Shown in pieces: positions 6,401 through 9,400 of a DNA stretch of 64,000 nucleotides (the stretch's first letter is position 1; the number at the start of each line of letters is the position of its first letter). The DNA is from Paraspadella gotoi (taxonomy: Eukaryota; Animalia; Chaetognatha): the NCBI GenBank assembly GCA_051294375.1, contig CM119267.1, forward strand, positions 4,758,225-4,822,224, given 5' to 3'. A program made the translations under genes and the position numbers. The notes below the pieces were generated by a model, which saw only the letters and a list, made by a program, of their open reading frames with translations, was not told the DNA's origin and ran no database searches.

Positions 6401-9400
6401 GTAGCTCTCAAGCGCGGAGTCACTTTTCATTTTTTTCGTCCAAATTTTAACGGTTTTTAACAATTTAACAAGTATTAACGCTGAGGTTATCTGACATAAG
6501 AATAAAAATTTTTGGTAATAAAAAGTAAGTTTGGTAATTTTTTATTATAAAAAAAGAGAGAGGGAGGGAAAAAACGTGCGAAGAAGCGAGAGAAGTTTGA
6601 GCAAACAACATCGATTCTCTCCACGATAATTTAGATATAATCAGCAAATTATATTGTTATGATTGATTTGATTCAAATTAAGATTTTAAATCGGGAAATG
6701 GTGGCTGTTGTCTATTATGACGATTATGACCAGTTTCTCCGTAGTGGTTATTGTATTTATTATGGTTGTAGTTGATATAATGGACTCGGTGTTTGTTATT
6801 GTCGCGATGGTTGTAATTATTTAGGTGGTTATGGGTTGTAACTGTAACAGTAACTCTCTCTCTCTCTCTCCTAATATCTAAGCCTCGCTGATGAAAATAC
6901 GCCATCAAAACAACAGAAAGAAAAACCACCTAAATTCAATTGATTCTCAACATTGAGAAAATACTTCCTTTTTTTTTTTTTTTTTTTTTTTTTTTTTTTC
7001 TTTTCCCCGTCCATTTTTTTTTCTTTCCTGTTCCGTCTGTTTCTCGACATCTCCTACCAAAAGGCGATTACGCGTACCACGCCTAGAAAAAATTTGACCG
7101 TCCAGAGTGAGTAGTGGTGACCTGGTAACGATAGCAGTCGTTTACTTGATAGATAACTTCTTTTAAAATTTTTTTTTTTTGGCAGGTTAGGCGATTAAGA
7201 TGTTACTTGTCAAACAAACTTTGATTTTTATAATTGTTGCTTCAATTGAAGTTTTCAAAGGTCAGTACCAAAGCAGTTCGTCTGAATGTGGTATGGCTGT
7301 AAGATGCTAAGCTTAAACTAGAGAACTAATCTCATAGATAGAGTATACCAAAAAGAAAAAGTACGATAACTGTTATTTTGCCTTTCATTTTTCTTTGCGA
7401 GTCTGTATAAGTGACCATTTCATGACAATTTACTTTGGTCATGGTGTGACTCTTGCCGTTTCATGAAACTCGAAAGAGAAGTTAGTTACTAGAGGAAAGT
7501 TTTTTATTATCAATGATGATCGCCTTTATTATTGTAGAAATGATGCCTTTGAGAGACTCAAAATTAGTTTTTATTCTCAGCCACGTCGTCGGAGTCCGTC
7601 CCTAATCTGCTCAATTTGGACGAAGATGCGTCGAGTAAGCCATTACTGCAGGTGAGTTAGGATAGTCTTGTACTCAGAAGTCATTTAGCGCTTTTTTAAT
7701 CTTAGTTTTATCACTTACCTTTTGGCTTAGAGCGATCTGGGGAAAAGGAGCGAAGACTTGACGAGTGTCGTCCGGTACTCTCGCGACACTAGAGACACCA
7801 GTAATGCTCTGGGCGACCTTCGCTCTGAGAGTGGCTCAGGCGACTCGAAAAAAAATATTCAAGGCTTAGCAGGCGAATTGAGAAAAAAAATATCGGGTGG
7901 CCTTGCGAGGGGCTGGGGAAAAAGGATGGAAAATGAGTGGAAGCAAGTTTATAGAATGAGGGATGCTTTGAAAAAAATAATACAAGGCGGCTCTGGCTTT
8001 CCAAGCCCATTGAGAAAAAAAATACCAGGTGGCCATGCGAGGGGCTGGGGAAAAAGGATGGAAAATGAGTGGAAGCAAGTTTATAGAATGAGGGATGCTT
8101 TGAAAAAAATAATACAAGGCGGCTCTGGCTTTCCAGGCCCATTGAGAAAAATACCAGGTGGCCATGCGAGGGGCTGGGGAAAAAGGATGGAAAATGAGTG
8201 GAAGCAAGTTTATATCGATCCTTTCGCCTATTAGGGAGGATTGGGCAATAGAATGAGGGATGCTTTGAAAAAAAAAATACAAGGCGGCTCTGGCTTTGCA
8301 GGCGAATTGAAAAAAAAAATATCAGGCGGCTTTGCGAGGGAAAAAAGGATGGAAAATGATGATTATGAGTGGAAGCGAGTTACTATGGATCCTTTCCCCT
8401 ATTCGGGAGGATTGCGCAATAGAATGAGGGATGCTTTCAATACTTGAACATGAAAATTTTCGACTAACAGACTATTCGATCAGAAGAGGGAGTTAGGGTA
8501 GGAGTCTACGTCGTTCTTAGAAATCGAGGAAGACTTTTTCAATGGAGATTTTCGTTAAAATCTGACTACCAAACAATGTCAACGCCCCTGGGAATAATTC
8601 AGGTAAAAAATAGATGTAAAAACACTCGATTCCGATCCTGTTGCATCTGAAGGGCTCGCATTTTTTTTCTCTTGACAAATAACCATCATTTTGACATCAA
8701 ACCATCAGATTCAAATGGACTGGTCCGCTCGGGAAAATATTTTCGATGCAATTTTTATATATAAAATAAAGGGATTTCTCAACTTCAATACAATGTCAAC
8801 GCATTTAACATATGATGTGATTTTACAATAAACTTCAAATTCAGGAATCCGATAGCCATATGTCTGAAGGGCTCTCAAAATTTTTCTTTACATTTTATTT
8901 GGTTATTTTGATATGATACGATCATGGGAAAGTGAATTAGTCCATTTTGGTGAAATTTTTATTTAAAGTAAAAGTAAAAGAGGAGCTAACGATCGGAATT
9001 CTAAGAGTTTTCAACCGGGAGTCAGATTCAGTAAAAATCTTCTATGGCGAAAATCTTCCAAAGAAGGGGTGGATTTTCCGAAGATTTTGGTTGATATTTT
9101 CTATATTTATGGTAGGATTTTTTTGAAACTTAATATTAACAATATTGCCATCATTCTACCTTGGCCGGTATAAGAATATATTAAAAAAACCTCTGGCTTT
9201 GTTCGTCAGAGCTTAGTCCTAGTTAGGGTAAAGCTCTTGAGTTTGCTGATTGCCAAACAAATGACGAAGAGGGTGGATGAGATGATTAGAAATGATCTCA
9301 ATGTGAACCTTGAAAATAAATAGTTAACGCGAAAACGTGTCTGTTTTTTTTGGATTTTTGATTTTGCTGCGGCTTCTTTGCTGCTGTATAATGTTTATAT

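Follow-up and report, generated by a model that had tools for sequence, protein, structure and literature searches.

The window, the 64,000-nucleotide stretch of DNA analyzed here, contains an innexin gene. A first-pass annotation had placed a neuropeptide precursor gene within the third intron of this innexin, on the opposite strand. The arrangement raises the question of whether the nested gene is real and, if so, what its product does and whether its position matters.

A spliced gene within intron 3 of an innexin gene

The nested gene is real, transcribed and spliced (Table 1). Its coding exons at 7200-7260, 7581-7651 and 7731 onward had been read as in phase; indeed, they share one frame that stays open across the joints, and their ends are GT..AG. 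Both of the junctions proposed for confirmation by RNA, 7260/7581 and 7651/7731, occurred as GT..AG joints in contigs from three of the four runs (X7, X10 and X11) and were absent from the DNA run, X5, which was unspliced. In X7, depth was 4057 and 4233 on the joined contigs and 20 on the one covering the first coding intron. The three spliced runs were taken to be RNA based on their splice joints, the recorded run type giving no RNA label. The contigs themselves are strandless; because the three GT..AG introns lie on the plus strand, the transcript was assigned to that strand. Contig depth is unfit for ranking the precursor gene against other genes, so we make no claim of high expression. The contigs from X10 and X11, which are filed under other organism codes, had a depth of 4-5 and 0 letters differing from the window; we interpret them as traces of the same species rather than as a sign of conservation.

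Coverage of the transcript in X7 extended from 7006 to 8527. The three coding exons of the first-pass annotation stood, but a 79-nt 5′-UTR intron at 7107-7185, evident in X7 only, had been overlooked. The spliced leader contains no ATG back to 6900. A long T run and a pyrimidine tract occupy 6969-7050 at the 5′ end of the transcript, which is covered in X7 from at least 7006; this tract may represent a 5′ UTR of unusual kind, a region left unspliced or an acceptor for trans-splicing. Among the contig loose ends listed, no spliced leader appeared. At the 3′ end, the gene had been drawn to 8447. This boundary had to be revised: the frame closes at TAG 8232-8234, giving a product of 211 residues, and 8235-8447 is an in-frame tail of 70 codons. 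The X5 contig over 8185-8523 had 0 letters differing from the window and no X7 difference is listed there. The TAG is therefore real in these samples, and an assembly error was rejected on the basis of the same X5 contig. The multicopy repeat at 8494-9237 begins ~260 nt behind the stop and contains the nearest AATAAA signals, at 8765 and 8827; it may be the source of the poly(A) site.

Table 1. Coordinates of the precursor gene, its modules and the host innexin in the window.
Feature	Position	Strand	Evidence or remark
5′-UTR exon	7006-7106	+	X7 contig, depth 1432, over 7006-7098; joins 7106 to 7186; start upstream of 7006
5′-UTR intron, 79 nt, GT..AG	7107-7185	+	Joint in X7 only
First coding exon, ATG at 7200, predicted signal peptide	7186-7260	+	Spliced in X7, X10, X11
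Second coding exon, acidic propeptide	7581-7651	+	Phase-1 intron before, phase-0 intron after
Last exon, coding part: first GKR, spacer, A-B-C repeat modules, stop TAG 8232-8234	7731-8234	+	
Module B1, ISGGLARGW + GKR, predicted amide	7890-7925	+	
Module C1, 15-residue peptide	7926-7970	+	C2 identical, 8058-8102; C3 longer, stop-bearing, from 8187
Module A2, 12-residue Gly/Pro-rich peptide	7977-8012	+	A3 8109-8144; A1 shorter, near 7857-7880; A4 8277-8309
Module B2, IPGGHARGW + GKR, predicted amide	8022-8057	+	
Module B3, DNA identical to B2	8151-8186	+	
Tail of 70 in-frame codons after the stop: remainder of C3 and fourth A-B-C unit, B copy without Trp-Gly end; read as 3′ UTR	8235-8447	+	X7 coverage to 8527
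Multicopy interspersed repeat adjoining precursor 3′ end, hides transcript end	8494-9237		X5 depth 2,800-13,600 vs 9-37 on the gene
Host innexin, 431 aa, nine coding exons (12567-12491, 11864-11761, 11403-11298, 5118-4922, 4382-4162, 3081-2971, 2120-1920, 764-594, 422-315)	315-12567	-	PF00876 and open model, GT..AG ends
Innexin intron 3, 6179 nt, contains the whole nested gene	5119-11297	-	Exon 3/4 joint bridged by relatives

The identity of the host gene was evaluated using Pfam and stored relatives. PF00876 (Innexin) matched four of the five minus-strand exon frames tested, and 15 stored relatives aligned with almost the entire model at 79-83% identity; in them, the joint of exons 3 and 4 is read through. 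The proposed antisense nesting held: the mapped transcript (7006-8527, with its ends beyond) lies inside 5119-11297 on the opposite strand. The remaining seven innexin introns span 171-1155 nt; intron 3 exceeds them in length by a factor of 5-36.

For the innexin relative P0001, 24 of 25 matches came from JGI, Logan or ENA (43-100%), and the best in NCBI/UniRef reached 24%. The confinement of the close innexin relatives to JGI, Logan and ENA indicates that the lineage is missing from NCBI/UniRef and common in environmental data. Sequences P0001-P0067 form a lineage-specific innexin clade, known only from assemblies of environmental data and raw reads, that comprises at least three paralogue groups (~80-86%, 50% and 43-50% to P0001). 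From its motifs, we take the host innexin to be bilaterian and spiralian-like. Its CpG o/e is 1.35, which fits unmethylated gene bodies like those described for a chaetognath (PMC12460157, in part), and fits other phyla too.

Several further features of the window were recorded. Genes for tRNA-Phe(GAA) and tRNA-Gly(GCC) lie in tandem at 13503-13713 on the plus strand, oriented away from the innexin start codon and ~0.9 kb upstream of it; Rfam over 1-20000 returned these two tRNAs and nothing more. Visual inspection of 9975-10055, within innexin intron 3, showed words resembling the A box and B box in the head of a tRNA-derived SINE; neither ARAGORN nor Rfam gave a match there. Three pairs of segments with similar translations (35191-36050/43041-44139, 29844-30384/38313-38791 and 33617-34067/41632-42301) are probably copies of interspersed repeats. 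An open frame of 186 codons and protein-like composition at 54730-55290 on the minus strand had no Pfam match and is possibly a transposon remnant. Pfam also returned no match for fourteen other ORFs of the window.

Predicted peptides and turnover of the repeats

The sequence and transcript data support a precursor that is transcribed, contains several peptide copies and carries signals for amidation and dibasic cleavage. Residues 1 to ~23 are signal-peptide-like, with a basic residue at position 5 and a short hydrophobic core at approximately residues 7-16. The best 10-residue Kyte-Doolittle mean of the N-terminus, 2.91, was reached by 13 of 562 ATG-started open stretches of 20 codons in the window, the gene itself included; a signal-peptide-like start had been proposed there. 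The acidic propeptide ends in GKR. The repeat region comprises four A-B-C units with periods of 132 nt (96% match) and 171 nt (83% match). The B modules of units 1-3 end in ARGW-GKR; this end is lost in unit 4, behind the stop. The predicted amides are thus three xxGGxARGW-amides, and every peptide named in the first-pass annotation was found encoded where it had been placed. Across all six frames of the window, the pattern Aromatic-G-K-[KR] has six occurrences, three of them being the B modules.

The precursor contains ten basic sites. Gly precedes all four KR sites and none of the six KK/RK/RKK sites. In general, KR is cut more readily than KK or RK. The release of short non-amidated peptides is uncertain, hinging on cutting at KK/RK/RKK. 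In a beetle precursor, mass spectrometry revealed cutting at Lys-Lys (PMC9552230, in part), and a convertase account gives, in the part available, no ranking of KR versus KK/RK sites (PMC9070308). Modules A and B are akin, and a Lys-rich pair precedes each, as is the case with paracopies in proneuropeptides.

Comparison of the units suggests that the peptide region grew through recent tandem duplication of the A-B-C unit. Five indels separate the modules (9, 3, 6, 36 and 9 nt, counted by eye), and all five are multiples of 3 (chance 0.004). Two of these in-frame indels lie behind the stop, which suggests that the tail lost its coding role only recently or is still translated on occasion. Unit 4 has a sense codon at the position of the unit 3 TAG, and a nonsense change in unit 3, probably recent, would have severed the degenerating fourth unit. 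Substitutions between copies, by our own count, comprise ~2-3 silent versus ~16 replacing changes, too few to test; with mostly replacing differences, the copies give no sign of purifying selection on their sequence. GC3 is 0.47 in the precursor versus 0.72 in the innexin. Read-through of the stop codon into the tail is unsupported, and in a search for an RNA fold that might serve it, the 109 nt from the stop folded no better than shuffles (z -1.66, 12/200). Because the stop sits in the last known exon, the precursor mRNA would escape nonsense decay. The precursor appears to have been caught in the midst of repeat turnover, with fresh duplications and a severed tail.

Relatives and candidate functions

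Searches for homologues used the last coding exon, which accounts for 167 of the 211 residues, as the query. No precursor orthologue was found among 497 candidates with lengths of 91-293, nor among 163 pattern matches in JGI metagenomes, for which the patterns missed the ARGW motif. A motif scan yielded 60 loci with no precursor-like frame (best tblastn E 0.007). In 35 of these 60 loci the motif was in frame; those frames resembled bacterial hydrolases or were GC-rich chance frames, and each held a single copy. Innexin relatives at ~80% are plentiful in the collections that yielded no precursor orthologue; as repeats break short-read contigs, which was observed at this locus too, orthologues of the precursor may be missing for technical reasons.

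Using phmmer against 1.84 billion representatives, we obtained one match (E 6.6e-07), a hypothetical protein of Bulinus truncatus, KAH9492006.1 (P0069). The match amounts to 29% over 87 residues and is inflated by 11 repeat stretches. The snail protein is unannotated, 795 aa long, and contains ~30 GKR-flanked repeats of 22-29 residues behind a hydrophobic leader; it is itself likely to be a precursor of amidated peptides in multiple copies, outside any known family. Like our precursor, it is secreted-looking with many GKR-flanked repeats; unlike the precursor, it has no Trp-amide, and its repeats are neutral to acidic. We consider it an analogue in build and not an orthologue. Among language-model neighbors, seven of the ten listed rows were precursors of neuropeptides or hormones (tachykinin 0.83, prothoracicostatic peptide 0.82, helicostatin 0.81); all rows scored <0.9 and the top one was a bacterial hypothetical protein, and we treat this result as a lead only.

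The literature was surveyed for the predicted products. ARGWamide and ARGWGKR are absent from the main texts of the accessible literature, subscription papers and most supplements aside. None of ten precursor motifs occurs in the supplement of Thiel 2021 (PMC8557429), and none of five in the 110,410 characters of the Thiel 2018 supplement covered (PMC6188537). Such a precursor is not named in the available main text of two chaetognath papers, PMC12460157 among them. The precursor is previously undescribed and has no assignable family, while its build and its nesting are of known kinds. The best reading is that it is lineage-restricted.

Judged from its sequence, a neuropeptide role is the most likely for the precursor. 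In full, we give about an even chance to the reading in which it is secreted and cut at basic sites to provide three xxGGxARGW-amides and spacer peptides, is likely a lineage-specific neuropeptide precursor whose product acts on a GPCR, and is nested probably incidentally. Following general prohormone biology, the signal peptide would direct the product to the secretory path, a convertase would cut after KR and probably after KK/RK/RKK too, and trimming followed by Gly-dependent amidation would yield the three amides. More tentatively, expression would be neuronal and the receptor would belong to the protostome RFamide/Wamide GPCR group. In favor of a neuropeptide stand the spliced transcript, the Gly before every KR site, the in-frame indels and the Lys-rich pairs ahead of modules A and B. 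True neuropeptides usually keep an active core between relatives. The lack of an orthologue and the mostly replacing changes count against a neuropeptide, as do the low GC3 and the short hydrophobic core.

These same features bear on two other explanations. It is possible, albeit clearly less probable, that the gene encodes an exocrine precursor (antimicrobial, prey-capture, adhesive or reproductive) that is cut only at GKR, releasing amidated cationic 40- and 41-mers whose N-terminal half would be helical and C-terminal half rich in Gly/Pro. Cutting at KR only would indeed give four Gly-ended products, including cationic ones of 40 and 41 residues, and two of the four have computed net charges of +6 and +5. 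The first 19 residues of the long KR-only product have a hydrophobic moment of 0.50, a value reached by 424 of 10,000 shuffles; this amphipathicity is borderline. Near-identical young repeats, mostly replacing changes and orphan status would all fit a fast-evolving secretion. The GKR-flanked, helical-looking repeats of the snail protein, the single phmmer match, also point this way, but the low identity and repeat inflation of that match weaken it. Further arguing against exocrine use, the Lys-rich pair is kept before each A and B module, as cut sites would be, and Pfam returned nothing above cut-off on the precursor, the antimicrobial families falling far below it (E 0.01 and 0.049). The other explanation, which we consider improbable, is that the gene is newly arisen or in decay and its products have little effect, the repeats having expanded neutrally and the nonsense change reflecting relaxed selection. 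The premature stop, the degenerate fourth unit, the replacing changes, the orphan status and the low GC3 would be expected of such a gene. Three spliced introns would not, with the spliced form ~200-fold above the intron contig in X7, nor would indels that are all in frame, an intact hydrophobic start, and GKR at four of four sites.

The locus provides a transcript-confirmed, testable peptide precursor from a lineage absent from the NCBI/UniRef protein sets. If the gene is neuronal, the ARGW-amide would be a candidate ligand for placing this lineage in the protostome RFamide/Wamide receptor expansion. If it is exocrine, the product would be a new cationic amidated secretion.

Comparison with nested genes and known peptide families

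The nesting of the precursor in the innexin is probably incidental. Overlapping genes account for 4-8% of genes in most animals examined and 26% in fly, few overlaps are old, and nested antiparallel genes are common and poorly conserved (PMC2330155, in part). That the nesting is functional, with transcription of the peptide gene and the innexin linked or mutually exclusive so as to tune chemical versus electrical signaling in the same cells, appears quite unlikely. The position of the precursor inside an innexin, on which the first-pass annotation rested its proposed coupling, would favor such a link, and nested antiparallel pairs of human and mouse are kept more often than divergent overlaps (79/152; PMC2330155, in part); however, no other innexin intron approaches intron 3 in length, and interspersed repeats have collected in it, making it the likeliest landing place. 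The synapsin-Timp pair resembles the present one in that a whole gene lies in one intron of a neural-type host on the opposite strand. That pair is conserved from fly to human (PMC2330155, in part), whereas the nesting of the precursor in the innexin is known here from one genome. Least probable of the readings considered is that the precursor is the founding member of a new Trp-amide family, from a lineage without a described neuropeptidome, and has been kept in the innexin across relatives so that both genes move shared neurons from peptidergic to electrical signaling and back, the tail perhaps being reached by regulated read-through that adds peptides.

Two families share parts of the predicted peptides. 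MIP/allatostatin B precursors are, like ours, multi-copy with W-GKR ends, and the prothoracicostatic-peptide cluster scored 0.82 by features. The consensus of this family is W-x6-W-amide; in contrast, each predicted 9-mer of the precursor has one Trp, and none has an N-terminal Trp. An insect allatotropin ends in ARGF-GKR, one aromatic change from the ARGW-GKR of the precursor (PMC8557429 supplement, in part). Allatotropin peptides end in ARGF- or HGF-amide, and only the ARG-aromatic-amide end has a likeness in the precursor. Allatotropin features missing from the precursor are the GF start, the near-N-terminal place and the conserved D-x-N-x-D-G region, compared by eye with Manduca and a nemertean (PMC8557429, in part).

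The closest comparison is with RGWamide and APGWamide. Thiel et al. 2021 link these two through their multiple copies and through a C-terminal pair of Cys that a phase-0 intron separates (PMC8557429, in part). In the available part of the supplement, 12 of 15 RGWamide precursors have the two C-terminal Cys, and the other three sequences are incomplete. The nested gene has three ARGW-GKR copies. Neither the precursor nor its tail contains any Cys, and the RGWamide/APGWamide pair, 20-30 residues apart, is missing. No phase-0 intron lies behind the copies: both coding introns precede all of them, and the transcript is mapped to 8527, beyond which any intron would lie behind the stop. Because it has no Cys and no such intron, the precursor was not filed as RGWamide/APGWamide. 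Its earlier description as a possibly new, N-terminally extended GWamide precursor suits the predicted peptide; membership of the family fails on these two features, and N-terminally extended GWamides already occur in the RGWamide precursors of Lingula and Terebratalia (PMC8557429, in part).

As a sub-case of the neuropeptide reading, the precursor could be a divergent true RGWamide/APGWamide orthologue that lost its C-terminal cysteine region, which we regard as unlikely. The multi-copy RGW-GKR ends, the extended peptides of Lingula and Terebratalia, and an innexin that is presumably bilaterian and spiralian-like, judging from its motifs, are consistent with such an origin. The missing Cys pair and phase-0 intron argue against it, as do the absence of any RGWamide precursor among the phmmer scores and of all ten motifs from the 2021 supplement. 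Organization differs as well: the precursor has long heterogeneous A-B-C units and not back-to-back RGWGK repeats, and no phmmer similarity to the spiralian precursors, which share with it a hydrophobic start, several GW-GKR copies and a predicted RGW-amide end (PMC8557429, in part). We conclude that the precursor probably stands outside the RGWamide/APGWamide family, though it may work like it.
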